Below, piece after piece: positions 5,085 through 28,600 of a stretch of 64,000 nt of DNA; the stretch's first letter is position 1, and each line of letters opens with the position of its first letter. The notes beneath the pieces were generated by a model. The model did not search any database. It saw only the letters and a program-made list of their open reading frames with translations, and was not told where the DNA came from. Source of the stretch: Dehalococcoidia bacterium (GTDB lineage Bacteria > Chloroflexota > Dehalococcoidia > Lucifugimonadales > UBA3495); the NCBI GenBank assembly GCA_963668585.1, contig OY764869.1:1397292-1461291 (forward strand), read 5' to 3'. A program made the translations under genes and the position numbers.

Positions 5085-5118
5085 CACCACAATCGCTCCT
5101 TCGTTGTTGCGTACGCCA

Positions 5119-5244: not shown

Positions 5245-5258
5245 ACCCAACGTCATCC

Positions 5259-7482: not shown

Positions 7483-7579
7483 AAAAATTCCTCACAATGC
7501 GCCGGACAGCCCAAGCCAGCTGCTGAACTCAGGCTTCGCGGCGCGAAACATCCGCCGGAACGGCAGGAAATCAATCCAG

Positions 7580-10500
7580 ATGGTAGTGCAAATCACGAAA
7601 GCCTCGACCGCAGCCGCAATCGCCCTGGTCACGGTCGCGATTGTCGTGACTCAGTCCGCGACGGGCTGGGCCCAGACCAACAGCGCCCCCATCATTGCAA
7701 CACCGTCATCTACCAGCCTGCAGTACCTGTTCCCCCGGGGAGCGGCAACCACGCTGAGTTTCCCATCGGCGCCAGCGACCGACTCCGACGGCGACGACAT
7801 CACGTACCGGTTCGTTTTCACCGTCCCGGACACATCCACGACGGACGAGGACGACACCAGGGAAGTGATCGCGGCCGACGCCCTGTTCACCGTAAACCGG
7901 AACGGCAACGCCTTTGCGTTCGACACGGTCCCGAACGTAACGCCCAAGCAGTTCAACGACCTCTACGGCGACGTCGTGAGCCACACGGTGCTGGTGAAGA
8001 TGTACGCCAACGACGGCGCGCAGGACTCGGAATCCCTGTCATTCAACATCAGGGTTTTCCACGACGCCTCCCCGCAGTTCCACCTGGCAGCCGCCTACCA
8101 GGGCAAGCAACGCTGGACCCTCGACCAGGAGATAACCGTCCACGAGGGCCCCGCCGCCAACGCCGAACTGGCGGCCATAATCCTGGGCGACTACGACGAG
8201 AACGGCCAGCCGCGCCCAGGACAGCCGACCCGCCTGGAGAACGCCGGCGATGCGTTGCAGATACCCTGGACCGCCGCCTCTGCCGGAACCAGAACCTGGA
8301 CCCGGGGCAACCGCGACGGCGCCGCAAACAGCCCAAAGATCGAGTGCCTGGACCACGACGGAGCCACCACCCACACGTGGGACGATGCCGGCAGTGAGGA
8401 CAGCCTCCAGTTCGGACTGGAAACCCCGGCGCAGAACGGGGCGGGACACGTCGCCCTGAAGTTCAGCTCGGAGCCCGACTACGAGAGCCCAGGCGACGAC
8501 GACCAGGACAACACCTACCTGGTCAGGCTGGTCAACGACCACGACATACACGGACTGGGCGACGACGACGCCACGCTGGGTTGTGACGGCTCCGCCGTCG
8601 ACGTCGCCATCACGGTCAAGGACGTTGGCCCACCGGCTCCCATCGAAGATTTCACCGTCACGCTGGAGGAAATGGACGACGGCTACACCGTAAACATGAG
8701 ATGGGACAACACGCGCCTCAATCGTTTCATCGAAAACGGCGATTACGTCGATTTTCCCGACCCATACTTCCCCCCCGACGGTCATCAGGATGGAATATCT
8801 GATCGAAAGGGAAACGCCAACCATCTTGACGCACACCGGAGAGACTGAATTTGACGTCAGCATCAACAGGTCCGCGGAGATCACCGGCATACCGGACACC
8901 AAGTACACGTTTACGCTCACGACCCAGAACTCCGAAGGAACGTCGGACCCCGTCACACAGACCATCAGAGTTCCCTGCCTAATCGAAAGCCCAGCAACGC
9001 CCACCGTCTCCCCAACCGGCCCGACGTCATTGGCCGTCTCATGGACTGACCATCCCAGAGAAGACCTGACCATCACGGGTTATGACATCCAGTTCCGCAA
9101 AGTGGATGCCACTGATTGGATCCTGTGGGACAACCCGTCCCTTGCCGGAACCTCAGACACGATAACCACGCTCGCTCCAAACCAGGAGTATGAGGTCCAA
9201 GTCAGAGCCAATACCACCGATGGAAACAGCGATTGGTCCGAATCGCAAACGGCCACGACCAACGCTTTCAACCCCGTCCTGACCCTGCTGTTTCCCAGAG
9301 GCACACCCAACCAGATCGAATTCTCCGGACCACTGGCCGGTGACCCAGGCGGCGGCGGCGCAACCTACGCCTTCTCCTTCGCACGGCCCGACGAAGAAGA
9401 AAGCCTCACGCCCGCCGAAACGCTCCTCACCGTCGCAGGCCCCGACGCCGACCACAACTTCACCATCAGCATAGCCGACGACGTGGCGCCGTCCCAATTT
9501 CGCACCGTCTACGGGAAAGACAGCAACTCCGTGGACCTCACCGGAACCCTCACCGCTTCAAATACCATCGGGCTTTCGACCGACCTCACTTTCACGATCA
9601 CCGTGACCTACGACGACTCCGCACAGTTCTCCACTCCCGCGGTGCATCAGGGCAACAACCGCTGGATCATTGCCGACCCTTACGAAACCTACGAAGGCAC
9701 GACGGAACTCCCCGAGATCTCCATTCTGTGGACGGCCGTAACGGACGGCCACCGGACCTGGGCGGCTGGCACACCCACCGCCATATCGTTTCAATGCTAC
9801 GACCACGACGGATACCATGCCGCCGAGTGGCCAACCGATGCCGAGAAGGACAGCAACCACTTCACCGTAACCTCACCGGCGCCCTCGACATCAGGCGCCG
9901 TCACCGTCGCGTTCACGTCCGCACCCGACTACGAAGCGCCGGATGACGACGAAGGACACACCACGGTGAACGGCGTTGACGAGCCCAACCCGGGCGACAA
10001 CACGTACCACCTGCGGATCACGAACACCCATGAACTCCACGATTTCGAAGGCGAGGTCGGCGAACTTGGCTGCGACGGATCCGCCGTCGACCTCACCATC
10101 ACGGTGAAAGACGTGGGGCCACCCGAAAAGCCCACGATCACGCAGGCCGAGTTCGACCCAAACGACGGCACGCAGATCAACCTGGCCTGGACGGAACCGA
10201 CCACGTTCGACGAAACGGGCGTCTCAGTAGACTTCCCCAGCTCGGATTTCCACGTCGCCAAATACCGATACCGCCACCGATCAACTTCCGAACAGACCTG
10301 GAGTCCGGAGCGCGAGACCACTTCCACCGCCGTGACAATAGCCGGCCTGGCGAACGACGACTACGTCGTGAGCGTCCAGGCCGTCAACTCCGAGGGAGAC
10401 AGCGACTGGACGCAGACGACCGTCAGAACGCAGCAAAACCGTCCGCCGACCATCACCACCGACACCTCCGGCAGAAACATCTTCTACAAGTTCCCCGACG

Positions 10501-13500
10501 GGAAACCCGCCGTGCTTCCATACGACCACGAGCCCGGCTCCGACCCGGACAGCGAAGACACCGTCTCCTACATAGTTCGCGTCGCGCTGTCCGACGACCA
10601 CGACGCGCCGTTCATACCCATCTCCGAAGCCCTGCTCGGCTACACCCGCGACGGCCATGACTTCCTGTTCGAGGCCATCAGGCACATCACACCGGCAGAA
10701 TTCAGAGAAATATACGGCAACGCAGGCGAGGCCGACGGCCTGCAGTTTCTGCTGTACGCCACGGACGGCGAACTGGAGTCAGGCCCAGCGCCGTTCATCA
10801 TGTCCATCTACTACGAACGGTCAGCTTACTTCCACGACGCCGACACGCGCGCCCCCGTCCAACGTTTCATCTACGAGACCCCCTTTCAGACCTACGAGGG
10901 ACCCGCCGCCGGCGACGATATAGCCATCGACTGGTCATCATCCATGAACGGCAGACGCGCCTGGGGCGCCGGCAATTTCTCCGGTCGCATCAGATGCCGC
11001 GACAACACCAACACCCTGACCGTCCACGAATCACCGGACCTCGGCAACGAGGACAGCGACCGCCTCGACGGCCCCACCGGGGAGACCAACGGCCACGAGG
11101 GGACACTCACGCCCCACTTCGCCGTTCCGCCCGACTACGAGAACCCCGCCGACCACGACGGCGACAACACGTATCACGTCCGGATTTACAACGACCACGA
11201 CCTGCTCAACCCGTCCAATGAGGCGAAGACCCCGTCCTGTTCCGGATCCACCCTCGACCTGCAGATAACGATCAAGGACGTCGGCACGCCCGCCCCCATC
11301 GCCCTTGCCGCCGACTTCAACCCCGAAGACCACAGCAAGATCGAGCTTTCCTGGACCACCCCCGCCGGATTCATCGAAGACGACGTCGTAACCGATTTTC
11401 CACACCCCAGCTTTGAGACCAGCTCCTACGACTACCGTTACCGCGCCCCCTCGTCGGACTCCTGGACCGAGGTGACCGGCGTCACCGAAACCAGAGCGAC
11501 CATCGGGAACCTGACCTCGCCCAGCTACGAAGTCCAGGCCAGACCCGTCAACTCGGAAGGCCCAACTCCGTGGCCCACCACCTCCATCAGCGTCAGCCGG
11601 CTGGCAACGCCGGAACAGGTCGCAACGCCCACGGCGTCTTCCCGCAACTCCAGCTCCATCACCATCACCTGGACCGAGCCCAACGACCGCGGAGTAACCA
11701 TCAACGAGTACCGCATTCAGCACAAGCGGACCGCAGACCCGGATTGGCTGCCATTCACGTCGGTAAACGGTTCAAAGCTCACCCTCACGTCCCGAAACCT
11801 CGATTCCGGCACGTCATACGACTTTCAGGTCCAGGCCCTGAATTCCGAAGGCGAAGGCCCATGGTCAGAGACCCTGACCACATCCACCACCAACCCGCCG
11901 CAACCCGACCCGGTGGCTACCATCCAGGCCATCGACTCATCGATCACCGAAGGAGACAGCGCCCAGTTCACGGTGAGCTTGACCCGAAACGCCAACGTCA
12001 CCGTCAACCTCGCCTATTGGTGGAACGGCGGCTATGGCACGACCTCCGGCGGGACGGCGACCTTCACCAACTCCGACTCGACCACCGTGTCGGTGCCGAC
12101 CAACATCATCACCAGCCCCGACCGCGGCAGAATCACCGTCAGCCTCTCCTCAGGCGCCGGATACAACATCGGGAGCCCAAGCTCCGCCATCATCAACATC
12201 GCGCGGACCGACAGCCCGCCCGAGACGCCGGATGCTCCCACCGTGTCGGCTCTCACCACGACGTCACTGCGCGTTACGTGGAACGCGCCCGAAAGCGAAC
12301 TTCCAATCACCGGCTACGAGATCAGATACCGCCAAACGGGCGCCTCCCAATGGGAGCACGAGTTCAGCCGGACCACAAACACGAACATCACCGGTCTCGC
12401 GGTGAACACCGAGTACGAGGTCGGCATACTGGCCATGAACGACGACGCAGACAGCGCGTTCTCGTCGTCAGGCGCCGGCTCGACGATGGACCTGTTTGTC
12501 ACCATCGACTCCGAACAGACGGCGGTCACGGAAGGCGACCGGATCACCTTCACGGTAACACTTTCCCGAGAAACACCCGCCGAGGTGACGGTCAACTTCT
12601 CATGGGCCGGAGACTTCGGAACGTCAACCAGCAACACGGTGCAGATAACAGCCGGAATACACGGCACGGTCGACGTTGCAACCAAAATCGGTACGACCAC
12701 GCGGAACGGCTCCCTGACGGCCGCAATTGCGCCATCAGACGCATACCGTTCCAACGAAACGGTTTCCAAAGTCGCAATAAACAAGCGCGCACCGGACCCA
12801 ACTCCTCGCCCTACTGCCGCACCGACGCCCGAGCCTACCCCAGAGCCAACGCCTGAGCCTACTCTGGAGCCAACGCCTGAGCCTACTCTGGAACCAACGC
12901 CCGAGCCTACTCTGGAACCGACGCCCGAGCCTACCCCAGAGCCAACGCCCGAGCCTACTCTGGAACCGACGCCCGAGCCTACCCCAGAGCCAACGCCGGA
13001 ACCGACTCCCGAGCCAACGCCAGAACCGACACCCGAGCCGACACCCGAGCCATCTCCGCAACAAACGCCGGAACCGACCCCTGAACCTACCGAGGAACCT
13101 ACTCCGACGGAGGAACCTACGCCAGTTCCGACACAGCAACCGCCAACCTCCACTCCGACTCCAGAACCAACGCAGGAAAATGAAGACTCATCAACTCCCG
13201 AGCCTACGGCAGAACCAACTGTGGAGCCGACGGCGCTGCCCACCGTGGAACCCACTGTAGCGCCGACCGTGGAACCAACGATATTGCCCACCGTCCCGCC
13301 GACCGTGCCACCCACTGTGCCACCGACTGTCCTGCCAAGTCCAGCGCCAACCTCACCTCCCCAAATTGAGGCTACGTCGGCGCCTGATCCCACCCAAAAC
13401 CCCGACGTAACCCAAGAGCCGGACACCAGCCAGGACGAGAAATCCCCGCAAGCGCCGACACCAGCGCCAACCAGGACGCCGGAGCCAACCGCCACCAGCG

Positions 13501-13853
13501 TTCCGACCCCCACGCCGATACCCACCGTGACGCCGACTCCCTCTCCAGTGCCTACCCCAACCACCGCACCTGTTGAACCAACCCCCACTGGAATAAAGCC
13601 CCAGCGACCGGCAATGCCGCCACCCGGTCAAAGCCAACCCACACCTGAAGAGCCGCCGGATCAACCTCACATCCTGCTGAGGCCAACAGACTGGGTACCC
13701 AAGCGACTTGAAAATCTGGTGCCCACGACACGCGAAGTCGTCAAAACGATCACCACGCTACCGAGAAACCGCCTGACGCTCGTGGCCGCCCTCGCCGTCG
13801 CACTCGTCGCCGCTGCGGCGGTGTTCATATACCTATTTTCCAGAAGGCACTAG
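7580..13853 (+). pseudogene. giant cadherin-like/FN3 surface protein with Pro/Thr/Glu linker and C-terminal TM anchor, split by a 1-nt indel in a C7 tract
   Basis: ORFs 7580-8848 and 8790-13853 share a repeat architecture (PDYE.P.D.D.DNTY; ITVKDVGPP; FN3 modules). Removing one C at 8770-8776 joins them ([15 protein letters not shown]). Signal peptide at the N-terminus, hydrophobic helix at the C-terminus. Confidence 0.75.
12790..13130 (+). repeat. tandem (T/L)PEPT coding microrepeat; the P/T/E-rich linker continues to ~13650
   Basis: 12-nt periodic units encode [16 protein letters not shown] many times. Confidence 0.9.
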
Positions 13854-14090: not shown

Positions 14091-14957
14091 GTGACCGCAT
14101 CACAGGACCCCAGTAAGCCAATGCGCTGCAACGCGCGGTCGGTACCGCCCACCTACATCCATGAGCTCGAAGGCAGGCCCAACTTCCGGTGGCACCAGGA
14201 AGACGTCACCATGCCGTTGGCCCGAGCAACAAGCCGACTCACCGAGCTCGTGGCCCTCATCCTCGCCCAAGGTGACCAGGCCGCGAACGAGGCCACGATC
14301 CAGAACCTCACCGACTCGGCGGTAGCCAGCAGTCGGATCGAGGCCGAGTTCCCCGACCCCAACGCAGTACGCCAAGCCATCGCCAAGCGAATAGCGGCCG
14401 GTTCCCAACTCGCCATCCAGAACGAGCCAGGCATCGCGGCAGTTACCGCAGGCGCCGCCCAGCGGCACGACGAACCACTCACGGCCGAACGGCTCCACCA
14501 TTGGCATCGCTGGCTGTTCACGAACGCCGGCCCCGAGCAGATGACAGTCGGCGATTGGCGCGACGACCGGCTCGGACCCATGCAGGTGGTGTCCACATCC
14601 GCCATGGGCCGACAGCCCACCGTGCACTTCGAGGCGCCCGCCGCCGCTAGGCTCGAAGCCGAGATGAACCGGTTCCTCGAATGGTTCAACCAGCCTGGGC
14701 CGGAGCCCGACCTGCGCAAAGTGGCCATCGCCCACCTGTGGTTCGTGACCATCCACCCCTACGACTACGGCAACGGCCGCATCGCGAGAGCCATCACGGA
14801 CCTAGCGCTGTCGCGGTGCGACGGCACGGAAACGCGCGTCTACAGTATGTCCGTCGAGATCATGCGCCAGCGCAACTGCTACTACCGGCACTGTAAACGG
14901 CGGTGGCAAACTGTCGTCGCTGCATGCCCTATGCCGGAAAGAAGGCTCTCAGATTGA
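14091..14957 (+). CDS. Fic/DOC family protein (DUF4172-type N-terminus), probably 3'-truncated
   Basis: Fic motif HPYDYGNGRIAR. N-terminal YIHELEGRPNFRWH. The sequence after YSMSVEIMRQRN departs from the expected family pattern and ends early. Confidence 0.75.
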   Translation: MTASQDPSKPMRCNARSVPPTYIHELEGRPNFRWHQEDVTMPLARATSRLTELVALILAQGDQAANEATIQNLTDSAVASSRIEAEFPDPNAVRQAIAKRIAAGSQLAIQNEPGIAAVTAGAAQRHDEPLTAERLHHWHRWLFTNAGPEQMTVGDWRDDRLGPMQVVSTSAMGRQPTVHFEAPAAARLEAEMNRFLEWFNQPGPEPDLRKVAIAHLWFVTIHPYDYGNGRIARAITDLALSRCDGTETRVYSMSVEIMRQRNCYYRHCKRRWQTVVAACPMPERRLSD

Positions 14958-15029: not shown

Positions 15030-15593
15030 CTATAACCCCCTCCTCGCTGTGGCCCGGCCCACGCGCTTAATGGCGCCAGTCACGTTGATCCGGAACTTCA
15101 TCATGCTCTGCGTGACGCCATAGTGAGCTGAGGCTACCGCCAACGACCAACCGCGCCGGATCACTGAAAGCGCCGCTTCTTCGGGGACCAACAGAGCGCC
15201 ACTCAACCAATTCGCCTCGTCCTCCACGTCTCGGCTCCAGTAACGGCAACCTAGTCCATCTACCGCAGGCTCAGGCGGATGGAGCAGCAGTCCGTGGGCA
15301 AGCTCGTGGCCAACGTCGCTGGCCTGCCTTCCCGGGACGTGGGCGTCGTTGAATACGACGGTCCTCTCATTGCCCCGGAACACGGTGACTCCTGAAAACA
15401 TGTCCTGCCCACCATCCAGGAATAGGTCTGCGGCCAACGGCGCGGATTCACGCAAACTGGACAGCGGGATAACCGGAATTTCAAGGTGCTCGGCCAACCG
15501 CCACACGTCCAGCGGCGAAGCGGGAGCCAATCCCAGCTCGCCCCTGACCTCGCGGGCGACCGCGTTCGCCTCGCTCTTGAAACCTCTGCGCAC
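15030..15593 (-). CDS. ImmA/IrrE-family zinc metallopeptidase (CapP-like)
   Basis: HExxH motif GHELAHGLLLH. Size and position directly downstream of an XRE HTH gene. Confidence 0.8.
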   Translation of the reverse strand: MRRGFKSEANAVAREVRGELGLAPASPLDVWRLAEHLEIPVIPLSSLRESAPLAADLFLDGGQDMFSGVTVFRGNERTVVFNDAHVPGRQASDVGHELAHGLLLHPPEPAVDGLGCRYWSRDVEDEANWLSGALLVPEEAALSVIRRGWSLAVASAHYGVTQSMMKFRINVTGAIKRVGRATARRGL

Positions 15594-15598
15594 GAGTT

Positions 15599-16006
15599 CT
15601 AATCCGTCTTCCTCATGCGCTCGTAGGTGGCTTTCACGAGCTGGTCCAGAGCCTCGGCCGCCTCAGCGGTCAGTTGAGGGTCGCTCTTGAGGTACGTGGA
15701 AATCATCGTCAAGGTTCCCGCCTCGGGCGTGGGCAAGCCATTTCCGACAAACGCGTCCGCGCTCAATCCGGCCCAGGTTACCAACGCCGCAAGGCTATCG
15801 ACGTCGGGTCGCCTGCCCTGGGCCATCCGCGTCAAGGTCGACGCGCTGACCTGCGCTTCCTGTGCGACCTGCTTCCAGGTGTAGCGGCGCGATCTCCTTT
15901 CAGCATCCAGCGCGGCGTAGAAGGTCTCGGCGTCAAACCGCCCCTTTCTCGGTTGACCGGTTTCATCGCCCGGCTCATTGTCGGGTAATTGCTCTCTTGC
16001 AATCAT
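15599..16006 (-). CDS. XRE-family HTH regulator (CapH-like)
   Basis: YTWKQVAQEAQVSASTLTRMAQGRRPDVDSLAALVTWAGL is a classic HTH_3 pattern. Start chosen at MIAREQL (16006). Confidence 0.8.
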   Translation of the reverse strand: MIAREQLPDNEPGDETGQPRKGRFDAETFYAALDAERRSRRYTWKQVAQEAQVSASTLTRMAQGRRPDVDSLAALVTWAGLSADAFVGNGLPTPEAGTLTMISTYLKSDPQLTAEAAEALDQLVKATYERMRKTD

Positions 16007-16025
16007 ACGCCACCTATGCAATAAT
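15997..16025 (+). promoter_or_regulatory. candidate sigma70-like promoter for the Ubl operon (TTGCAA-17-AATAAT), with repeated TGCAAT-like half sites nearby
   Basis: Read directly from the sequence in the 115-bp divergent intergenic region. GCAAT motifs at ~15999, ~16018 and ~16063. Confidence 0.3.
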
Positions 16026-16121
16026 GCGAGTGTCAAATCGAACGTCGATCTGGCAATCACTCTACAGCCTCCGGTGGAAAACTGCAAGACGCACCGGGGA
16101 CACGCCCTGACAAAGGAGAAA

Positions 16122-16385
16122 ATGATGACAACCGCACTCAACGTAGACCAGCCCCGGCGCTCCATCCCGTTCACCATCGACGGTCAGCCCTATACCACGG
16201 ACGACCTCAGCCAGACTGCGGCCGATCTCCTGAGGCTGGCCGGACTGGATCCTGCCACCTACGACCTGGGCGAACTGCGCGGCAAGGAACGACCGGAGAC
16301 CAAGCGTTTCGACGACGCGGACCCAGTGGAGATCGAGAAGGACGCGCGGTTCGTTTCGATCCGGCAGGCCGGAGATGTGGCCTGA
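16122..16385 (+). CDS. single-domain ubiquitin-like (Multiubiquitin-family beta-grasp) protein, 87 aa
   Basis: AAGGAG RBS. Pattern IPFTIDGQPY...TAADLLRLAGLDPATYDL...DPVEIEKDARFVSI matches my memory of the family. Its stop shares a base with the next ATG. Confidence 0.7.
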   Translation: MMTTALNVDQPRRSIPFTIDGQPYTTDDLSQTAADLLRLAGLDPATYDLGELRGKERPETKRFDDADPVEIEKDARFVSIRQAGDVA

Positions 16386-16732
16386 TGGACACCGGCGCCG
16401 AAAAGTTCGTTGACGACATGACCAAGGCCGGCTTCGACGTTTGCGTCGAGGCCGAGGTCGTCACATTCCAGATAACCCCCGTCGACGGTGCCCATGCCGG
16501 ATGTTTGGTCGATACCGGCGTGAGCTCCGGCGAGCTCGACCCTTGGCCCCAAGCGCCTCCGCACTGGGTCCACTTTCCAGACAGTGTTGGCTTCTCCAGA
16601 ACTAATCCCAAACCGTCGCCGAAGTCCGGATGGGTGATGCACAGCCGAAACCTCCACGGGTGGGGGGACGCTCCACCGGCGGTCTGTTGGGCCAGCCATG
16701 TGCGGGCGGTCCTGAGCGAGGCGACCTCATGA
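16385..16732 (+). CDS. E2/UBC-like (Prok-E2-type) protein, 115 aa
   Basis: Translationally coupled between the Ubl and JAB-E1 genes. WPQAPPHWVHFP block. Assignment rests mostly on context; no clear HPN-Cys signature. Confidence 0.5.
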   Translation: MDTGAEKFVDDMTKAGFDVCVEAEVVTFQITPVDGAHAGCLVDTGVSSGELDPWPQAPPHWVHFPDSVGFSRTNPKPSPKSGWVMHSRNLHGWGDAPPAVCWASHVRAVLSEATS

Positions 16733-18237
16733 ACGGCCACACCACCTCGGTCGCCATGACGGCCGCAACGGAACGTGACCTGCTGAACCTGCTGGTCCGG
16801 CACGACGGGCAGGAAGACCTCTGCCTGGCCACCTACAGACCGTCCACCGGTGCGACCAGATCCAGTGCGCTCATCCGGACCGTCATCCCCCCTGAAGAGG
16901 GAGACAGGTTTGTCCACGGCAACGCGACCATCACCGCCGATTACATCCTCAGGAGTGCCCAGATCGCCCAAAACGACCAGTGCGGCCTGGTCTTGCTGCA
17001 CAGTCATCCCGGTGCCGAACGTTGGCAGTTCATGAGCGGGCCCGACCGGGATACGGAGTCAAGCTACGCCTACCTCGTCGGCGAAATCACCGGACTCCCT
17101 CTGGTGGGCATGACGCTCGCCACCGGGAACAACACCTGGTCGGCGCGTCATTGGGACGTAGGATCGGTCAATCAGGTCGACTGCAACCACTGCGCCAACG
17201 TGCGGGTCATCGGTGACCGACTGGCGGTCTCGTGGAATAACACATTGACGCCTCCCCCACCGGCGAACGAGAAACAGGTCCGCTCGGTCAGCGCCTGGGG
17301 AGAACGCTGCCAAGCGGACCTGGCGCGACGGAGGGTCCTCGTTGTTGGAGCCGGCAGCGTGGGTCTCGACGTGATCGTCCGCCTGGCGGCATCGGGACTC
17401 TGCCACCTGACCATCATGGACTTCGACCTCGTTCAAATCCACAACCTGGACCGGCTCATCGGTGCGACCATGCGGGACGCGCGACTGAAGAGACCGAAAA
17501 CCCACGTCGCCCACCGCGAGGCGACGAAAGCGGCCACCGCCGGTGATGTTCGCATCGATGTCTCGGAGCGTTCCATTTGCGAACCGGAAGGGTTGAAGCT
17601 GGCCCTGGACCACGACATCGTCTTTTCATGCGTCGACAGCCCCTGGGCGCGGGCGGTGCTCAACGCCATGGCGTACACCGACTTGATCCCGGTCATTGAT
17701 GGCGGCATACGCATCGACACACTACCCGACCACAGTATGCGGAACGCCATCTGGCGTTCTCACGTCGTCCGGCCACAGCGACCCTGCATGAGCTGCAGTC
17801 GTCAACTGGACCTGGCCGAAGTACCGCTTGACAAACAGGGCCTGCTCGACAACCCCGAGTACATTGCCGGATCCGGTCGCGCCGCCGTGTCCAGCAACCC
17901 GAACGTAGCGCCGCTGTCGGTCAACGCGGTGGGCAGCCAGTTGGCCCAGTACGTAAGCTTCAGCGCGGCACCGGCAGGACTGGGAGACCCTGGGCCGTTG
18001 CGGTACTCACTGAATTCCCACTTTCTTGAACACCTGGAGGACACCACCAGGCCCTACTGTCCAGTGGAGCTGGAAGAAGGCGCTGGTGACCGGCGTACCA
18101 ACCTGACAGGTCGTCACGAAGAGGCCGAAAGGATCCGCCACATCACGCAATCCCCAGGGATGAAGACGCGGTTGCTCCGGTGGGCTGACGACGCCATACA
18201 GGCGGCGACGAGGCGATTGGACCGCCTAACTGGGTGA
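16729..18237 (+). CDS. JAB/JAMM metalloprotease fused to a ThiF/E1-like adenylating enzyme, 502 aa
   Basis: LLHSHPGAERWQFMSGPDRD (HxH...SxxD); VLVVGAGSVGLDV, MDFD, NLDRL, CMSC. ATGA overlap with the upstream gene. Confidence 0.85.
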   Translation: MNGHTTSVAMTAATERDLLNLLVRHDGQEDLCLATYRPSTGATRSSALIRTVIPPEEGDRFVHGNATITADYILRSAQIAQNDQCGLVLLHSHPGAERWQFMSGPDRDTESSYAYLVGEITGLPLVGMTLATGNNTWSARHWDVGSVNQVDCNHCANVRVIGDRLAVSWNNTLTPPPPANEKQVRSVSAWGERCQADLARRRVLVVGAGSVGLDVIVRLAASGLCHLTIMDFDLVQIHNLDRLIGATMRDARLKRPKTHVAHREATKAATAGDVRIDVSERSICEPEGLKLALDHDIVFSCVDSPWARAVLNAMAYTDLIPVIDGGIRIDTLPDHSMRNAIWRSHVVRPQRPCMSCSRQLDLAEVPLDKQGLLDNPEYIAGSGRAAVSSNPNVAPLSVNAVGSQLAQYVSFSAAPAGLGDPGPLRYSLNSHFLEHLEDTTRPYCPVELEEGAGDRRTNLTGRHEEAERIRHITQSPGMKTRLLRWADDAIQAATRRLDRLTG

Positions 18238-18439
18238 GAACCGGCGGGGAACGCTCCCGTTGGCGGAAGATCCCGACCTCCAACCTCGCTCACCGACTGC
18301 ACGGATCCGTGCAGGTCGTTGGTATGCCCGGGCTGTGGCACATTGCCCCACGGCGGCCGGCCTTACGGATACCGTAATCCAGGGTCCGAACGGTGGTGCG
18401 TTCCACGTTCCAACCGGCGAGTATTCGCGATGTTGTTGC

Positions 18440-18468
18440 TTGACCGCCTATGAATGCTCGTTTATGAT
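18440..18468 (+). promoter_or_regulatory. near-consensus sigma70 promoter TTGACC-17-TATGAT
   Basis: Read directly. Followed at ~18544-18565 by hairpin GTAGCCGA/TCGGCTAC and a T-run at ~18583-18588. Confidence 0.45.
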
Positions 18469-18785
18469 GCAATCCCTAAACTTTCAGCGGGCCGACACAG
18501 ACGCGTGCATCCCTCGCCCAACGTTCATGGCAACCCTACGGTCGTAGCCGATTGAAGTCGGCTACCGGTTGGATCGTTGCGGTTTTTTCCCGACAACCCG
18601 CCATGCTATCTACAATGCAAACAGAACCGTCCTCGTGCCTGCCTGCCGCGAAAGCGCCTCGTCTACCATCCCTGCGTGGGCAAACGAGTGCATCTTTTCG
18701 CCTTCACTTACCCGAAACACCAATCTCCAAACGCACATTCAGCACCCGTTTCGGTAAGTGGAGTTCACCCGAAGGAGGAGAACTC

Positions 18786-18962
18786 ATGGCCGACCAAAAG
18801 CCCAACCGTACCGACGCTGTCGAGATGGCCAAGGAGGTTGAGCGCATCATCAGACACACGCCGCCCGATGTGATCCGGGACATGGAAAAGCGGCTGCAAG
18901 AATTGCGCCAGACGCCTGAGGCGAGCACCTCTGATGAATTGATGCATAAACGCGCCGGTTGA
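18786..18962 (+). CDS. small hypothetical protein, 58 aa
   Basis: GGAGGAG RBS 5 nt before the ATG; followed by a strong terminator. Confidence 0.4.
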   Translation: MADQKPNRTDAVEMAKEVERIIRHTPPDVIRDMEKRLQELRQTPEASTSDELMHKRAG

Positions 18963-18992
18963 CCATCGACCATCTTGTTGGAGTCCCTACGG

Positions 18993-19019
18993 GAGCCAGG
19001 GCGCGACCCTGGCTCTTTT
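18993..19019 (+). terminator. rho-independent terminator
   Basis: GAGCCAGGG-cgcga-CCCTGGCTC followed by TTTT. Confidence 0.65.
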
Positions 19020-19047
19020 ATGTTGAGAAATCGAGGCCAGCATCATC

Positions 19048-20571
19048 GTGTTTGAACGTTTTCAGGTAGTTCGCGCAGCCGACGTTTTCGCCGACGAGAA
19101 CCTGCAACCGTACCCCGAGAACGTAGCCGACCGGTTGCGGGAAGTCCTGTCGTCTCTGGACCCGCCGGCCAGAACCGCGGTAATCGAGAGCGACTATACC
19201 GATGTTGACTACTCGGCGTCCTACTACGACCAGCGCGGACGGTCTTTCACCCCCGACCGGCGGGTCACCAAGCGCATCCATTTCTTCGCGGCGGAATTTT
19301 CAGATGAGGACTTGATCGAAGCCAGTCAGCACACCATCAGCACGATGCAGGACTCCTACCTGGGGTTCGCCGTCTTACGGCCGGAAACGCCCGTCACACT
19401 TGGCAGGACCGTCATAGCCTGCCCCTCCACAATTCGCCGACACCCGGTGAGGTTCCCGACCAGGAGCACCACCAAAGTGGACCTGGCTGGCATCCCGCTT
19501 GAGGTGGAGTCGTGCCCCTACATGTCACAGGACGCCAAGATCATGGTTTGCGCGACCGCCGCGCTCTGGATGTCCTCATCGAACCTGGTCGACAAAATTC
19601 CCGGCATCCCGTTCCGGACCACCGCCGAAATCACCGCCCTGGCAATGTCTTTGGACCGGCCCTTCGGGCCCGCCGTCGTGCAACGAGGACTGTCCATCGT
19701 TGAGATGGAGCAAGCCTTCATCCGAATGGGTTTCGACCCCCGGAGGCACGAGTTCCCCAGCGCCGACCGAATAGTCGAAATCTGCCACCTGTTTTCCGAC
19801 AGTGGCATCCCGCCCGTCCTCGGCATCACGTTCGGACCAGTCGGCCACGCGGTCACCGTTGTCGGCTACACCCTGGGAGCTCCGCCGGACCCGGTTCCGG
19901 CATTCCGTGATGTGGCTTCAGCCCACCAGTACGTCCCTTACCTGGTAGTCCACGACGACCAGAGGGGGATGTATCTCCTCGCCGAACTGGAGGACGACCC
20001 GGTAGACGGCGACCGCCGCACTGCAGTGTTGACGCTTCACACACCCAACGGGCCCGAGCGCGCGCGCTGTACGGCCATTTTGGTTCCATTCCCCCGAAGG
20101 GTGATGCTGGACGCCCTGGAAGTGACGGCTCAAGCAGGATACTGGATTGAGTTCGGAAAACGCTTCGGCGTGATCGAAGATCGCAAAGTGGTTTCCCGCA
20201 AACTCCTCGTCAGGTCGAACAGCTACAAGCAAAAGCTGCTCGAGAATCGGCGCTCACCCTCGAAACCCGATGGGTACCCGAAGGAACTCGTGGACTTTGC
20301 GAGGGCGCTGCCAATGCCAAGGTACGTATGGCTGATTGAGGTCTCCTACGTGAAGGATTGGGATCCGACCAATCCAGCGCTGCCTCCAGTGATCGCGGAG
20401 TTCGTGCTTGACAGCACTCTAACGGAGGACCGGCGTCCAGACTTCTTGATGGCTCACTTCCCTGGTAGATTGCTTGGGAATGTGGTCAAAGAAAGCGGGG
20501 TCGAACTGGTTCCGGAAACCGTATCCGACGACGGAGACCATCTGCCTTTCCCTGACATCCCGCGGCCATAA
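19048..20571 (+). CDS. papain-fold (C39-like) cysteine peptidase domain protein, 507 aa
   Basis: Ordered Q...C / H / D signature: SQDAKIMVCATAALW, VGHAVTVVGY, LVVHDDQRG. GTG start. Confidence 0.6.
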   Translation: MFERFQVVRAADVFADENLQPYPENVADRLREVLSSLDPPARTAVIESDYTDVDYSASYYDQRGRSFTPDRRVTKRIHFFAAEFSDEDLIEASQHTISTMQDSYLGFAVLRPETPVTLGRTVIACPSTIRRHPVRFPTRSTTKVDLAGIPLEVESCPYMSQDAKIMVCATAALWMSSSNLVDKIPGIPFRTTAEITALAMSLDRPFGPAVVQRGLSIVEMEQAFIRMGFDPRRHEFPSADRIVEICHLFSDSGIPPVLGITFGPVGHAVTVVGYTLGAPPDPVPAFRDVASAHQYVPYLVVHDDQRGMYLLAELEDDPVDGDRRTAVLTLHTPNGPERARCTAILVPFPRRVMLDALEVTAQAGYWIEFGKRFGVIEDRKVVSRKLLVRSNSYKQKLLENRRSPSKPDGYPKELVDFARALPMPRYVWLIEVSYVKDWDPTNPALPPVIAEFVLDSTLTEDRRPDFLMAHFPGRLLGNVVKESGVELVPETVSDDGDHLPFPDIPRP

Positions 20572-20947
20572 CGGAGTTGAGCACGGCGGTCGGCATCAGC
20601 CGCCGTCAACTACGCTGAACGCGACGGCAAAAGGCCAGGACGCCCACCGGGGAGATGATGAGCTGAGCCCCCAGGTCGGCTCTGGCCTGCTGTTGCATCA
20701 TTGAGCATCCCAGGGATTCATGGGACCATTCCCGCCGTTTCTCCGCCGAAATGCAGTTCAGACGCACGGTAGACGCCAACCACAATAAACGAATGGGAGT
20801 AACCAAGAAGCTCTCTTTAGCCATGAGCACAATGTCACAATCCTGCATACCCACCGATGCGAACTGACGGTGGCCGTACACAAATGTGTTGTCCCGCTAC
20901 ACCAAACAACGAAGACAACACTCCGGAACAGGCGCACGCCGCCCACG

Positions 20948-21458: not shown

Positions 21459-22133
21459 CTACGCCGGCTCCGGGTAATCATCCAGCAGACCGCTCTGAAC
21501 CGCCCAGACGACCAGCTCCTGCTTGTTGGTGAATTGGAGCTTCCGCTGGATGCCGTAGATCGAGTTGCGAGCCGTGATGGGCTGGATGCCGCACGCCTCG
21601 CCGATCTCAGCGTAGGTGCGGCCCCGAGCAAAGAGCGCCAGCATTCTCTGCTCCCGGTCGCTGATGCTGTCCGCTGCCGGACCGCCCGCCGGCCGGACCG
21701 CCGAACGGATCCCGGCCAGCACCCGCCGCATCGCGTCGCTGGGGATCCGGTACTCCCCGGCCGCCACGTCCCGCACCGCGTCGATGAACTCCGCCATGCC
21801 GCAGACCTTCTGCAGGTATCCCGTCGCACCCGCCGCGAGCGAGTCCACCACCGCATCCTGCTCCGTAGACATCGTGAGCACCAGCACCCTGGAGTTCGGG
21901 GTCTCCTCCATGATCTCACGGCACGCGTCGATCCCGTTCTTCACCGGCATGATCAGGTCCAGGACCACCACGTCAGGACGCAATTCTGACGCCATCTCCA
22001 CCGCCATCTGCCCGTCCGACGCCTGTCCGACCACCCGAAACTCCGCGCTGCTTTCCAGAACCCGGCACAGGCCTTCACGAACGATCTCGTGGTCGTCCAC
22101 CAGCAGCACCGTCACGCCCGACGCGTCCAACAT
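21459..22133 (-). CDS. NarL/LuxR-family response regulator
   Basis: Receiver domain VLLVDDHEIVREGL...VVVLDLIMP; C-terminal GerE HTH REQRMLALFARGRTYAEIGEACGIQPITARNSI. Confidence 0.9.
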   Translation of the reverse strand: MLDASGVTVLLVDDHEIVREGLCRVLESSAEFRVVGQASDGQMAVEMASELRPDVVVLDLIMPVKNGIDACREIMEETPNSRVLVLTMSTEQDAVVDSLAAGATGYLQKVCGMAEFIDAVRDVAAGEYRIPSDAMRRVLAGIRSAVRPAGGPAADSISDREQRMLALFARGRTYAEIGEACGIQPITARNSIYGIQRKLQFTNKQELVVWAVQSGLLDDYPEPA

Positions 22134-22134
22134 C

Positions 22135-23649
22135 TCACTCGCCTCCTTGACTTGGCTCGAATGGAACCCGGCACGCCACTGTCGCGCCGGCCCCGCTGTC
22201 GTTATTCGCAACCTCCAGGACCCCGCCGAGGAGTTCGGCATCCGCGCGCATGTTGCGGAACCCGTGGCCCCGAAGCTGGTAATCCTCCGGCAACCCCAGG
22301 CCGTCGTCCGTCACCGACACCACCAGGTCGACCTGCCTGAAGTCCAGCACAATATCGACCCGACCGGCCTGGGCGTGACGAAACACGTTGGTCATCGCGT
22401 TGTGGGCGATTGAGAACAGCAGACTCTTGGTCGCCACCGGCAGCTCCGGTTCGACGCCCAGCTGCCGGACCTCCGCGGGAATCGACGAGACGGCGGTGAA
22501 AGTCGCCGCGTGCGAACTCAGCGTGGTCCCCAGCGCCTGCCCCTCGAAGATCACCCCGACGTCGATGGGATGGCGCAGCGACCAGATCGCCCACCGCGCA
22601 AGCTGTCCCGTCGCCTCCAGGCTGGTCGTCAACTGCGGTTGGGACGAACCGGCCAGGCCCTTCGCATGGTCGATGCCAATGCCAATCATGTATGCCGACT
22701 GGCCCACCGAATCGTGGATGGTCTGCGAAAGCTTGATGCGTTCCCACTGCAGTTGCTGTTCCCGAGCCACCGCTTCCCGGCGTCTAATGCGCTCGTACCT
22801 GGAGACCAGGCTGACCACGCAGGTGATGGCGTACAGCGCCAGGATCCGTTGGAACAGTTGCTTTTCATCGTTCGCCTCGAAGTCCACTCCAGCGCCCACC
22901 GTCAAGCTCAAGACGGTGTACACCACCGCCACCAGTGTAGCCCAGGCGCAGCTCAACCTGATCGACGTGAACACCACTGCAAACGCGGCCAGCATCACCA
23001 GGTAACCGGGATAGAAGCTACTCGCGAATCCACCCGACATTGAAACACTGAACGAGATCCAGAAAATGTCCAACGCGAAGAGCCCCAGCAGCCACCGGGC
23101 GGACACCATCCGCCCCGACCGGATCCGGTAGAACACGTAGCCGTTGATCACAGCCGGCGTCAGCGCGTACAGGGTGTTCAGAGCGTAGAAGCGATCCAGG
23201 TAGCCGGCCGGATAGTTGATCTCGATCAAAGCTCCGATTACCCAGGACCAACGTAACCACACGCTGATGATCGCTCCATACCGGAGCTCATCCGGGTCCA
23301 GACCTTCCGCCAACAGCCATTGCATCGGCTTTCCGAACGGCGTGGCCAGAAACGTACCCGCTTTCAATCGCCAACTCCCGTTGAGCTGCTCCGAGCCGCC
23401 GTGCCCCAGGCGGTGGAACACGACCACAGTCTTCCCATGGATGATACTGAATCTCAGCCGGTTTGCAAGGGCCGTCCGGCGAGTTCTCGTTGTGGAATGG
23501 CCATGCCAGCCTCGGCCAAAACGACCGGCGCCACGAACGGCGAGCCAACCCTGGTGCGTTACATCCGAATGGTAAGGGTAATAATCACTGAACACTGAGG
23601 CATTTATTGATTGTTTCGTATCGCCCATGCTGATACAACCTGGCCGCAT
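22135..23649 (-). CDS. membrane sensor histidine kinase (HisKA_3/NarX-DesK type); start uncertain
   Basis: Several TM helices. H-box LSQTIHDSVGQ. HATPase NVFRHA...VTDDGLGLP...GHGFRNM. Abuts the response-regulator gene. Confidence 0.8.
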   Translation of the reverse strand: MRPGCISMGDTKQSINASVFSDYYPYHSDVTHQGWLAVRGAGRFGRGWHGHSTTRTRRTALANRLRFSIIHGKTVVVFHRLGHGGSEQLNGSWRLKAGTFLATPFGKPMQWLLAEGLDPDELRYGAIISVWLRWSWVIGALIEINYPAGYLDRFYALNTLYALTPAVINGYVFYRIRSGRMVSARWLLGLFALDIFWISFSVSMSGGFASSFYPGYLVMLAAFAVVFTSIRLSCAWATLVAVVYTVLSLTVGAGVDFEANDEKQLFQRILALYAITCVVSLVSRYERIRRREAVAREQQLQWERIKLSQTIHDSVGQSAYMIGIGIDHAKGLAGSSQPQLTTSLEATGQLARWAIWSLRHPIDVGVIFEGQALGTTLSSHAATFTAVSSIPAEVRQLGVEPELPVATKSLLFSIAHNAMTNVFRHAQAGRVDIVLDFRQVDLVVSVTDDGLGLPEDYQLRGHGFRNMRADAELLGGVLEVANNDSGAGATVACRVPFEPSQGGE

Positions 23650-25345: not shown

Positions 25346-25601
25346 TCTACAACGGTCGCCAACTGGGCAAAGGGACATCGTCGCTGTCCGTTTAACACGA
25401 CGGAATCGCTGGACAACAACACATCGCGTCCGGTGGTGAGACCCATTGAGCGTTTCAGCCAGGCAACCTTTTTCAAACCAGGAGTAATGAACCATGTTCA
25501 GTGTCAAAGGTAGAGCATCCAATCGGTTGGTTGTTGGCAGAGGTACGGACGCGGCGAGCGGCGGGCGTATTCCGGACCGCCGTTCCTGGCGGGGTGTGAG
25601 C

Positions 25602-28600
25602 ATGCGCCTGCGCCTGCTGGCCGGGCTGGGCCTGGCGGTCGCTCTGCTGGCGTTCCTGGCAACCCTGGCCGCGCTGCCGGCCCCGCCCCTGCAGGCGCAG
25701 GCGCTCCCCGCCGCGACCGAGGTCCCCAACGGCTGGAGTCTCAAGCCTGACGGCCTGGGCACCGGCGACAAGTTCCGGCTGCTGTTCCTGTCCTCGACAG
25801 TGCGCACCGCCCAGGCCACCGACATCGCGGATTACAACACCTGGATCCAGAACCGCGCCGCAGCCGGCCACGACGACATCCAGGCCTACAGCCAGAGTTT
25901 CCGGGTGGTGGGCTGCACCGCCGACGTGGACGCCCGGGACAACACCGCTACCAACACCAACATCGACGGCGAGGGCGTGCCCATCTACTGGCTCAACGGC
26001 AATAAGGCCGCGGATGACAACGCAGATTTCTATGACGGGGACTGGGACGACGAGGTCGGCGACAGGGATGAGTCAGGCACAGACGGCCTCAATACCGACT
26101 TGGATGACAACCGCCCCTGGACCGGCTGCGGCCATGACGGCACGGAGGGTTTTAGGTCACTTGATAATTCTTCGCGGGCGCTCGGCGCGGCTGTCGTGCG
26201 CTATGGCTATCCCAAGCATCCCGATGCCTTCTACGGTCCCCTCAGCGGCTTCAACGACCTCGCCACTTTCCCGCACCCCATGTACGGGCTCTCGCAGGTC
26301 TTCGAGGTTGGGCCACCGGAAGTCCTGGTCAGCAACACGCATCTGAGTCCGTTGACCAATAGCAGCCGTTTGTTTCAAGCTCAGAGCTTCGAAACCGGGC
26401 CCAACGCGGATGGCTACACGGTCTCCGAGGTTGACGTGTGGTTGGGAAATGCCTCAGGCAGAAGCACCAGCGTCAGTATCAAGGAGAACAACGCCAGCGA
26501 TGAACCGGGCGATCTGGTGGCCACCCTCGCCAACCCAACGTCCTTGACGGACGACAGCCCCAACACCTTCACGGCGCCGGACGTAATCACGCTGGCTGCG
26601 AACACGCGCTACTGGATAACCGTGAACGAGGGAATCTCATCCAACCAGGCGTCAGTTCGCATTACTGAGCTATATGCCGAGGTCGGCGAGACGGGCTGGA
26701 GCATCGGCAACGGCCGCCTGCAAGAAGTTTTTGGTATCTGGCGCTCCAATCCCGAAACCCTGTTGATAGCAATCAGGGGCTCCGGTGTAGGCGTCGAATT
26801 CTCCACCAACGCGACGCTGAGCGGCCTGGCGCTGGAGGTCGCGGACGGCGGCGAGACCATTGCGGTGAGTCCGACCTCCGATGCTTACGTCTACACGGCA
26901 GTGGTGGCCAACCCGACCGGCGCGGTGAAGCTGACGGCGACGAAGCACCACGATGGTGCCACGGTGGCCATCACCAACGACGACGACCCCGCCACGCCCG
27001 GGGAGGCGGAGCTGGACCTGGGCGTCGGGTTCAACACGCTGACGGTCACGGTGACGGCGGAGGATGCCGACATCACGCTGACCTACACGGTAACCGTGGA
27101 ACGCTATATCCCCGAGATCCTGGTCAACAACACGCGTCTGGGTGGGAGGACCGGTACCGTAGAGGACGTTCTCGCTCAGAGCTTCGAAACGGGCGCCAAC
27201 CCGGAAGGCTACACGGTCTCCGAGATTGATATACGGTTAGGAGATGTCTCAGGCAGGAGCACCAGTGTCAGGATCAGGAAGAACAACGCCAGCAATCGAC
27301 CGGGCGACCCGGTAGCCACCCTGACCAACCCGGGGACGTTGACGGCTGGCAGCCTCAACACGTTCACGGCGCCGGCCGGCACGACGCTGGATAGGAACAC
27401 AACCTACTGGATAACCACGAACGAGGGAATCTCACCCTCATCCCAGAGGGCGCGTTTTTTTCGTGATGACAGAAATGAAGATCTCGGCGAGCCAGGCTGG
27501 AGCATCGGCGACGACTATCTATGGAGACATGCCGAGACGGAAAGCTGTAAAAACGATAACACATCCCTCCTGATAGAAATCAGGGGCATCTATGGGGTGC
27601 TCCTGCCGGCGCCGCGCCTGCCGGCGGTCGACGACCCGCAGGCGATCTGGCTGGCGACGCTCACGGTGGGGAACCCGGGCTCGGGCCAGCAGGGCTACGA
27701 CGGCGCGCATTGCGGCCGGGGCGGCCTGAGCGACACCGCGTTCACCTACCTGGGCGACAACACCCCGGTCCCGCCAGGGGGGACCCCGCCCTACACCATC
27801 GACCTGATGGCTTACAACCGTGCGTTGGGCAACTTCGAACTCTCCCTCGATCGGAGGTTCATGCAAGATAGCGCCGCAAACATAGTCGTGGATGTGGACG
27901 GGACGCAACTGCGATTTTCGAATGCGACGTATGCCGCGTCCTCCAATGTCTTGCCCCCCCATACCTACTCGTGGACCATGACCGACCCCTCGTGGCCGGT
28001 CGGCGAGGAGGTGCGGGTGAAGATCCTGGTGCTCAAGGATACCGACGGCCCGGTTGACCTGATGGCGACGACCACCCTGTCCCCGCACACGACCCCGACC
28101 GGATGGAAGTACGAGACGCGAAACCTGACCCTGACCTGGACGGCGCCGACCAGCGGGGGGACCGTGACCGGCTACCGGTTGGAGTACCAGCCGGACCCGG
28201 CGTTCCAGTGGAAGACGCTGGTGGGGAACCAGTCGGAGATGTCCTATACACAGAGCGGCAAATTGAGGGACGTGGTGGACTACTACCGCGTGGCGGCGCT
28301 GCGCTCGGGCGAGTCGCCGAGCTACTCCGATATAGTGCGGGTGCAGGTGCCGCCGGAGACAACGAAGGTCCCGCAGCAGGTGGGCTATATGGAGGCCGGT
28401 ACGGCGCCGTGCTCGGGCGTGAAGGTGGCCTGGAACCGGGCGTACACGGGGATCGGCAAGAGCGGGGACGGGGCCGGGAGCGGCGTGCGGGCCCGGGGCT
28501 ACCAGGTGCAGTATGCGGTGGACGACGGCAAGTATCCGCATTACGTGGTCTATGGGCAGGACTGGTCCACCGTCACGCTGCCGAACTGGCTGAACGGCCT

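Follow-up and report, generated by a model that had tools for sequence, protein, structure and literature searches.

What kind of pathway is encoded where the genes of a ubiquitin-like protein (Ubl), an E2-like protein and a JAB-E1 fusion lie divergent from an XRE and ImmA pair, and does this gene set have a partner of its own? The question is raised by a 64,000-nucleotide (nt) stretch of a Dehalococcoidia bacterium (GenBank assembly GCA_963668585.1, contig OY764869.1, positions 1,397,292 to 1,461,291 of the forward strand; the whole stretch is hereafter called the window, and coordinates count from its first letter), in which an initial reading of the sequence, hereafter the original prediction, had delimited five such genes at 15030-18237. 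All five open reading frames (ORFs) were found to be present and intact, with exact stop/start overlaps according to the ORF list and direct reading, so that the observation was confirmed while its interpretation was partly supported. The conserved unit, however, reaches 20590, and the earlier span was too short; what had been described as a locus with no evident effector or target gene missed a co-conserved 58-amino-acid (aa) ORF and a 507-aa papain-fold peptidase gene lying downstream. Taken together, 15030-20590 is probably a 5.5-kb mobile cassette that encodes a pathway for ubiquitin-like conjugation of the Bub type (operon type 6e).

The extent of the cassette was revealed by comparison with related genomes. 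The segment 15058-20590 shared 81% nucleotide identity with two other Dehalococcoidia genomes (L001 and L002), in which the flanks were unrelated, and the same seven units occurred in relatives at 87% and 77% JAB-E1 identity, amid genes for transposases, a replication-relaxation protein, an AIPR protein and a helicase. A contig scan with one protein as the query gave four loci. The gene set was thus kept in L001, L002 and the 87% and 77% relatives; L008 and L009 (69 to 72% JAB-E1 identity) do not carry the small-ORF and peptidase module and use other regulators. In viral collections, no relatives of the JAB-E1 protein and a single, remote relative of the peptidase were detected; therefore, a phage-borne origin was not supported.

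The core of the cassette is of a kind described before. Operon type 6e was defined by Iyer, Burroughs and Aravind (2006; PMC1779556) as a polyUbl, an inactive E2/RWD-like protein, a JAB-E1 fusion and a metal-binding protein, where the E2-like domain may be a separate gene between the Ubl and JAB+E1 genes and a solo Ubl occurs in one species. Type 6E was renamed Bub by Ye, Gong, Chambers and Corbett (2024; bioRxiv 10.1101/2024.11.21.623953), with the former 6E.1 becoming Type I Bub, and these authors determined crystal structures of BubCD from Citrobacter sp. RHBSTW-00271 alone and with BubA and BubB (PDB 9ea4, 9ea8 and 9eae). Moreover, they reconstituted Bub conjugation in vitro via Tyr and Ser oxyesters (with Citrobacter Y370 being required), showed the JAB domain to cut at a conserved Gly of the BubAB fusion so that BubA is set free, and identified BubE (DUF6527) as a Ser-His protease that removes conjugates. 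The window core is of this 6e or Type I Bub kind, and likenesses to BubCD, to BubB and to the Ubls of Bub and Bil systems uphold the reading of a Ubl, E2-like and JAB-E1 conjugation operon. Its architecture, for which no characterized member had been recognized in the original prediction, had in fact been published as type 6e and as Type I Bub, together with structures and in vitro conjugation. Published work already accounts for the core (Ubl, E2-like protein, JAB-E1 and XRE/ImmA).

The central gene of this core (16729-18237, + strand; 502 aa) encodes a JAB/JAMM peptidase fused to a BubCD-like E1 adenylation domain, as indicated by Pfam and by PDB profile matches. The E1 half scored on Pfam ThiF (5e-27, residues 183-357), while the JAB half had no match in Pfam, NCBIfam or PADLOC. 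Among PDB entries, the best match was Citrobacter BubCD (9ea4) at 1.9e-17 for the single sequence, and a 14-sequence profile matched the same entry at 4.3e-34 over residues 7-412, covering both domains; on this alignment the JAB half most likely represents a JAB/JAMM domain. The JAMM residues E29, H91, H93, S103 and D106 were invariant in the alignment from 100% down to 26% identity, as were, in the E1 domain, G207, G209 and G212 of the GxGxxG segment (207-212), D231, N239, R242 and D303. All motifs from which a JAMM/JAB plus ThiF/E1 fusion had been read at the outset (HSHP, S103..D106, GAGSVG, MDFD, NLDR and C353xxC356) were present and conserved. The zinc cysteines 353, 356 and 444 were invariant, and the crossover region between them (357-443) contained no cysteine. 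It did contain Tyr378, invariant in the 14 sequences down to 26% identity and placed within YI[AT]G, comparable to Citrobacter Y370 within GYITG; the equivalence of the two tyrosines was taken from this motif, as HMMER put the gap elsewhere. In the Hyphomicrobium relative L004, the JAB-E1 frame (5989-7491) is split within the JAB domain into two ORFs (5989-6222 and 6235-7491), through a frameshift, a stop or else an error in the assembly.

Annotation databases captured little of this protein. PADLOC has no Bub or Bil model, and its E1-E2 models gave Rossmann-level matches only for the E1, confined to residues ∼195 to 373. The E1 domain also scored on ThiF, MoeB and SAMP-E1 models of NCBIfam, and sets of JAB, Ubl and E1 genes occur in sulfur transfer, which would suit a sulfur-carrier or cofactor pathway (of the ThiS/MoaD-ThiF/MoeB or CysO-Mec kind) with a thiocarboxylated Ubl that is not attached to proteins. 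We consider this very improbable, considering that all these NCBIfam scores fell far under the curated cutoffs, that the locus has no rhodanese domain or acceptor enzyme and carries a UBC-fold protein gene between the Ubl and E1 genes, and that BubCD, the closest solved relative, performs protein conjugation, while the cassette is mobile and repressor controlled.

The Ubl gene (16122-16385, + strand; 87 aa) is preceded by a GGAG ribosome-binding site 8 nt upstream of its ATG, and its TGA (16383-16385) has the A in common with the ATG (16385-16387) of the 115-aa E2-like ORF, the stop of which in turn overlaps the start of the 502-aa ORF as ATGA (16729-16732). These coordinates and overlaps, including those of the Ubl and the fusion gene, agree with the initial description in the ORF list and on direct reading. 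The product is a single-domain, Multi_ubiq-type beta-grasp Ubl precursor resembling BubA. By itself, the window protein remained below threshold in Pfam (18.4 bits on Multi_ubiq, PF14452, under the 24.5-bit cutoff), and a PDB search with the single sequence gave only noise; the Multiubiquitin assignment comes from its family, since Pfam Multi_ubiq was matched by 8 of 11 members and the family profile matched the Type II Bub multi-ubiquitin 9cd2 (7.7e-7) and the Bil multi-ubiquitin 8u38 (2.5e-5), as well as 9d5b. The C-terminus reads ...FVSIRQAG84-DVA, leaving a three-residue tail after Gly84 that presumably needs trimming, and the G-x-V-A ending was kept in L001, L002, L008 and L009; therefore, processing is presumably still needed. 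In the distant clade of Bub-like operons located convergent to the peptidase (described below), the Ubl instead ends in a strictly conserved RFLAI[PE]NDDNS with no Gly near the C-terminus (for example, L007 at 11385-11651, and likewise L019, L023-L025, L036, L037, L039, L056, L084 and L089).

The E2-like protein (16385-16732, + strand; 115 aa) was recognizable by fold comparison. It had no match in Pfam, NCBIfam or PADLOC, and neither the single sequence nor a 7-sequence profile retrieved anything from PDB sequences, BubB chains included. Its AlphaFold2 (AF2) model (predicted local distance difference test [pLDDT] value, 92) returned in Foldseek a list consisting mostly of UbcH7-type E2s plus Citrobacter BubB, with weak E values (∼0.1) and probabilities of 0.8 to 0.93; for BubB (9eae_C), the template modeling (TM) scores were 0.52/0.48 and the probability was 0.85. 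Thus, the model supports a ubiquitin-conjugating (UBC)-fold, E2-like protein resembling BubB (cysteine-less and a divergent Prok-E2_E), which substantiates the fold behind the initial E2-like label, though the label itself found no backing in Pfam, NCBIfam or PADLOC and the structural E values were weak. Prok-E2_E is matched above threshold by the homologous domain of L004. The window protein has 40 homologues, and W54, P55, P58, P59, H60, W61, T73, N74, H86, S87 and R88 were invariant, and we infer that the segment W54-P-x-x-P-P-H-W-x-H-F corresponds to the E2 signature YPxxPPxxxF, with Ser87 at the active-site position.

Which chemistry these proteins would use is informed by the same alignments. 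The window E2-like protein has cysteines at positions 20, 40 and 101, and cysteines are present in the E1 domain too, as required for canonical ubiquitination via thioesters on catalytic cysteines, in the manner of Bil or eukaryotic systems. None of the E2-like cysteines is conserved, however; the conserved E1 cysteines make up the structural zinc site CxxC...C, no cysteine occurs in the crossover loop, and the single adenylation domain is without the inactive and cysteine domains of BilD, all of which makes thioester chemistry the least credible of the alternatives weighed here. For the same reasons (no conserved cysteine in the E1 crossover loop or the E2-like protein), the likeness to Bil and cyclic oligonucleotide-based antiphage signaling systems (CBASS) drawn in the original prediction failed as far as chemistry is concerned. 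A cysteine-less crossover loop with Tyr378 and a cysteine-less E2 with Ser87 fit Bub oxyester chemistry.

Comparison with known systems placed the window closest to Type I Bub and type 6e. With Type I Bub it shares a JAB-E1 fusion homologous across both domains, a cysteine-less crossover loop with an invariant Tyr, a probable cysteine-less UBC-fold E2 with an invariant Ser, a Multi_ubiq Ubl with a conserved Gly needing proteolytic exposure, frequent XRE and M78 regulators, and residence in mobile elements. There are also differences: the window JAB-E1 is only ∼25% identical to BubCD; two genes with a one-base overlap, rather than a BubAB fusion, encode Ubl and E2; the Ubl has one beta-grasp domain, compared with three in Citrobacter Bub; and the E1 has a CxxC...C zinc site, which Citrobacter BubCD does not have in the aligned segment. 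Type 6e resembles the window in its solo Ubl, its inactive E2-like protein encoded by its own gene, its JAB-E1 fusion and its high mobility, while its metal-binding protein Y (C-x3-C-x35-38-H-x2-C) is not present in the window and its description (PMC1779556) gives no regulators and no papain-fold partner. At 42% identity, the Hyphomicrobium metagenome-assembled genome locus L004 encodes a three-domain Ubl-Prok-E2_E fusion (Multi_ubiq 2e-25, with Prok-E2_E above threshold) followed by JAB-E1, with divergent XRE and M78 genes.

Bil and CBASS stand further away. Bil (BilABCD, Type I/II, operon type 6C) likewise combines Ubl, E2, JAB and E1, often with CapH/CapP, and carries the same accessory papain-fold peptidase and small-ORF family (in L005 and 11 metagenomic loci). 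However, its E1 is multidomain (an inactive adenylation domain, an active one and a Cys domain), its E2 is a Cys enzyme of the CEHH type and its JAB is separate, whereas the window has a single adenylation domain; the Bil proteins of L005 gave no match to the window proteins. Type II CBASS (Cap2/Cap3) has an E2-E1 fusion, a CD-NTase and an effector, and the window cassette is without a CD-NTase.

A further difference from Type I Bub is that the DUF6527 protein BubE is missing, with a papain-fold peptidase and a small ORF present instead. DUF6527 had no Pfam match on any cassette ORF, PF20137 was absent from the precomputed annotations of seven related loci (L005-L009, L091 and L092), and a CxCxC...S...C..H motif was found in none of the six frames of the window, the part beyond the cassette being checked by this motif only. 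As the published catalogue of Bub systems was assembled from operons with DUF6527 (Ye et al. 2024), the BubE-less clade of the window falls outside it. Bub chemistry has been worked out; this clade is widespread and invisible to a DUF6527-based catalogue. The literature searched described no papain-like gene in linkage with Bil or Bub, and the BubE-less form with a papain-fold and small-ORF module that also occurs with Bil operons appears to be new.

This downstream module appears to have a transcriptional organization of its own. An internal sigma-70-like promoter (TTGACC-17-TATGAT; 18440-18468, + strand), which agrees with the consensus at 10 of 12 positions, precedes a leader of ∼310 nt with several hairpins that is almost invariant across the three genomes, above the coding average; the whole block 18440-18785 was nearly invariant in L001 and L002. 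The leader had no Rfam match and folded no better than shuffled sequence (z -1.66), and it could be a regulatory leader of the small-ORF and peptidase unit. The small ORF (18786-18962, + strand; 58 aa) has a GGAGG ribosome-binding site, a PP[DE]V core and a conserved ELMxKRxG C-terminus, and the gene was also called in L006, L091 and L092. A longer, 136-aa version (18552-18962) was rejected due to nontriplet indels upstream of 18786 among the three genomes; at 77% JAB-E1 identity, only its 58-aa part is still conserved. An intrinsic-terminator-like hairpin with an 11-bp stem and a T run (18991-19017, + strand), identical in L001 and L002, separates the small ORF from the peptidase gene.

The latter (19048-20571, + strand; 507 aa) encodes a three-domain papain-fold cysteine peptidase with no signal peptide, identified from its AF2 model (pLDDT, 91.6), Foldseek and invariant residues; it had no match in Pfam, NCBIfam or PADLOC. 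Q161, C168, H267, D303 and D304 were invariant in 61 homologues down to ∼20% identity, and a few remote relatives carry Peptidase_C39_2. In Foldseek, the central domain resembled staphopains, IdeC, a papain-like protease from Treponema, UfSP2, the C39 domain of PCAT1 and the ubiquitin clippase BpJOS, with probabilities of 0.94 to 1.0 for staphopain, IdeC, UfSP2 and C39, whereas no whole-protein structural match was obtained (TMq ≤ 0.25), the conserved N- and C-terminal domains being unmatched. Staphopain A/B (C47), UfSP2, BpJOS, C39 and C39_2 thus share with the window peptidase the Q...C...H...D arrangement and the papain fold of the central domain, and matches in BFVD span only the papain domain of phage lysin-like proteins. 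Such fold similarity does not reveal the substrate of the peptidase.

Relatives of the peptidase were followed across genomes and metagenomes. A 57%-identical peptidase relative lies beside a BilABCD operon (L005), a 51%-identical one is accompanied by a 58-aa ORF without a Ubl system (L006), and a 25%-identical one (L007) faces, in convergent orientation, a Ubl/Prok-E2_E/JAB-ThiF set whose XRE is window-like. A metagenome scan yielded 80 loci with peptidase relatives of 23 to 31% identity, the ORFs of which were searched with hidden Markov models. The peptidase was convergent with a JAB-E1/E2-like/Ubl/XRE set in 15 of the 80 loci, with stops 0 to 11 nt apart except for one at 98 nt, and lay beside Bil operons, often with an M78 gene, in another 11; the remaining 54 had neither set. 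Among these unlinked loci, 26 have at least 1.5 kb downstream, where restriction-modification or helicase genes but no recurrent family were found. In a neighbor-joining tree, the window type, the Bil-linked and the Bub-like-linked peptidases formed separate blocks, apart from one large unlinked clade, and 31 of the 34 loci with enough flank within the three linked blocks were linked. Both linked groups have a small ORF ahead of the peptidase, and this ORF falls into two families with strictly conserved C-termini, ELMxKRxG for the window type versus KF[AS]xR for the other, between which no relatedness was detectable (hhalign probability, 0.5%). The window-type family always ends in Gly, and small ORFs of 64 to 100 aa ending in KF[AS][WLF]R occur in both Bil-linked and Bub-like-linked loci (for instance, L012 at 5503-5796, L015 at 8647-8865, L028 at 8647-8877 and L074 at 1113-1307). 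These findings tentatively suggest that the peptidase and small-ORF family is an unrecognized common part of the evolutionarily distinct Bub-like (cysteine-less) and Bil (cysteine-based) systems, possibly a new class of Ubl protease in the place of BubE, or an effector or target arm under the control of the Ubl machinery.

An alternative is that the peptidase module is independent and merely shares defence-island or mobile-element space, leaving a five-gene Bub-like locus. This would account for the absence of a nearby E1 in about half of the evaluable metagenomic loci, for L006, and for L008 and L009, which have no small-ORF and peptidase module and other regulators. It is nevertheless rather unlikely, given that the linkage is clade specific and nearly universal in three clades (31/34), is seen with two unrelated families of conjugation systems and in either of two gene orders, and shows stops 0 to 11 nt apart in all convergent loci but one, and that the module is passed on inside one 81%-identical block whose flanks vary.

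Accordingly ranked, the readings of the peptidase run from a deconjugase or regulator, which is favored, through an effector-inhibitor pair close behind, to co-location, which is less likely. In the favored reading, which we hold tentatively, the papain-fold peptidase fills the deconjugating or regulating role of BubE. Several observations weigh against it: Bil operons keep the papain-fold peptidase despite a JAB deubiquitinase of their own; the peptidase family is a large one, with 3,450 clusters (50% identity; E ≤ 1e-30); its biggest clade stands alone by restriction-modification and helicase genes with no E1 nearby; and the peptidase has its own promoter, with a terminator just upstream of its gene. 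The Bil JAB deubiquitinase and the mostly autonomous family, in particular, argue against a simple deconjugase. Apart from family size, the same observations would suit an effector arm, in which a protease toxin or executioner is held by the small protein and would be released or redirected when the conjugation machinery modifies the peptidase, the inhibitor or a phage protein. Moreover, the strict C-terminus of the small partner in two unrelated families recalls protease-inhibitor pairs (staphopain-staphostatin), and staphopain is the best fold match of the peptidase. On the other hand, the peptidase carries no membrane or secretion signal and no recognizable death-effector domain, and stop-to-stop convergence would suit any functional partnership equally; an effector arm is somewhat less probable than the deconjugase or regulator reading. 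The finding is of consequence: the peptidase and small protein form a concrete partner co-evolving with Bub-like and Bil operons, and, if it is a deconjugase or an effector, a way to find what bacterial Ubl systems do.

Expression of the operon appears to be governed by the divergent gene pair. An XRE-family helix-turn-helix (HTH) repressor (15599-16009, - strand; 136 aa; HTH_31 9.8e-7 and HTH_3 3.7e-5, both above threshold) and an ImmA/IrrE-type M78 zinc peptidase (15030-15593, - strand; 187 aa; Peptidase_M78 1.6e-12) are co-oriented, with the XRE gene upstream and 5 nt between them, so that an XRE HTH gene and an ImmA HExxH peptidase gene divergent from the operon, as originally proposed, were recovered by Pfam on the - strand. 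The divergent gap, given as 115 bp in that description, actually measures 112 bp (16010-16121). This shared control region is 91% identical across the three genomes versus 81% cassette-wide; a sigma-70-like promoter (TTGCAA-17-AATAAT) lies at 15997-16025, and the three copies of GCAAT[CA]A within 15998-16059 are candidate operator half-sites. The zinc site H96-E97-xx-H100 plus E126 is present in ImmA, the Pfam match of which stops at residue 170, and Cys116 stands at the position and spacing of the CapP cysteine switch, although the alignment retained it in close relatives only. Aligned relatives measured 168 to 236 aa. PADLOC capP matched at 9.5e-7 over profile positions 6-124 of 242 only, and RmrA also matched.

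The divergent XRE and M78 arrangement was kept in L001, L002, L092 and L004, and the same XRE type (E values of 1e-30 to 1e-36) occurred beside distant Bub-like operons without any ImmA. In L008 and L009 (5361-7185), a different regulator set replaces XRE/ImmA, consisting of an M78 peptidase on the operon strand and two divergent genes, one for a 209-aa protein with a weak HTH_31 match and one for a 175- to 242-aa protein with a sigma-70 region 4-like segment. The divergent genes of the Paractinoplanes locus L003 (44% identity; 3661-5176) also differ from XRE/ImmA and encode a 299-aa, weakly HATPase-like protein (subthreshold) and a STAS-like DUF4325/HTH protein; there, a 685-aa acidic protein with no family assigned follows JAB-E1.

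The resemblance of the window pair to CapH/CapP is partial. The CapH and CapP system, related to IrrE/DdrO and ImmA/ImmR pairs, was described by Lau et al. (2022; bioRxiv 10.1101/2022.04.27.489752; PMC13228613), and CapH+CapP adjoin 31% of 544 Bub operons (Ye et al. 2024). As in the window, an XRE HTH repressor gene is followed by an M78 HExxH peptidase gene, divergent from the operon with a common promoter region, and a Cys, which among the window-type proteins is retained in close relatives only, occurs between HExxH and the third zinc ligand (the cysteine-switch loop). In contrast, E. coli CapP has 288 aa with peptidase, HTH and GAF parts and a single-stranded DNA (ssDNA) groove between the peptidase and GAF (PMC13228613), whereas the window ImmA is a short form of 187 aa without GAF, its size being nearer to that of ImmA from integrative and conjugative elements or prophages than to that of CapP. 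Hence, position and active site agree with a CapH/CapP-like label, and the length and domain content of ImmA do not.

By analogy with Bub, CapH/CapP and ImmR/ImmA, and starting from the gene content, catalytic residues and linkage observed here, the following course may be proposed. XRE would repress the shared promoter via the GCAAT[CA]A repeats until a stress or infection signal causes ImmA to cleave XRE, whereupon the operon would be induced. The JAB domain would then trim the Ubl after Gly84, removing Asp-Val-Ala, and the E1 domain would adenylate Gly84, with the Ubl moving onto Tyr378 as an oxyester; from there it might pass to Ser87 of the E2-like protein and finally to target lysines. 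The small protein could act as a partner of the peptidase, either an inhibitor or an adaptor, and a promoter of their own would drive both genes. A defence or stress role for the cassette is reasonable. Three points stand against this picture. The E2-like protein has its His at -1 of Ser87, where Bub E2s have theirs at +2, and the invariant +2 His and the Asp of Bub are not reproduced; the window ImmA is without the GAF domain that forms the ssDNA-sensing groove of CapP, and therefore such a groove cannot exist in that form; and the Bub authors reported no protection against phages from any of the Bub operons that they tested (Ye et al. 2024), so that a defence role is hypothetical.

The window derives from the chromosome of a Dehalococcoidia-like organism. 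Directly upstream of the cassette lies a Fic/DOC gene with an N-terminal DUF4172 (14091-14957, + strand), SoFic-like by PADLOC (5e-26) and outside the block conserved in L001 and L002; its product matches positions 17-239 of 361 of the SoFic profile only and may be truncated. About 3 kb downstream of the cassette, the segment 23600-25500 has a G+C content of 0.70 and long overlapping ORFs on both strands, including a 536-aa, HTH-like ORF of transposase-like appearance, and may be an insertion element. No tRNA genes were found in the window. Pairs of a sensor kinase and a LuxR-type regulator flank the region at 21459-23649 (- strand) and 3643-7482 (- strand), with HisKA_3/HATPase_c and Response_reg-GerE domains in one and HAMP/HATPase_c and GerE domains in the other; these two-component flanks are ordinary chromosomal context, not a defence island. 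In addition, three giant ORFs occur at 8790-13853 (1,687 aa), 25494-30962 (1,822 aa) and 45766-52848 (2,360 aa), and all three are probably cell-surface proteins: the 1,822-aa ORF scores on fn3 and Cadherin-like models, while the 1,687-aa ORF reads as repeat rich, with a long linker of Pro/Thr/Glu and a hydrophobic anchor at the C-terminus. A large FN3 protein is likewise encoded directly upstream of the small-ORF and peptidase pair in L006.

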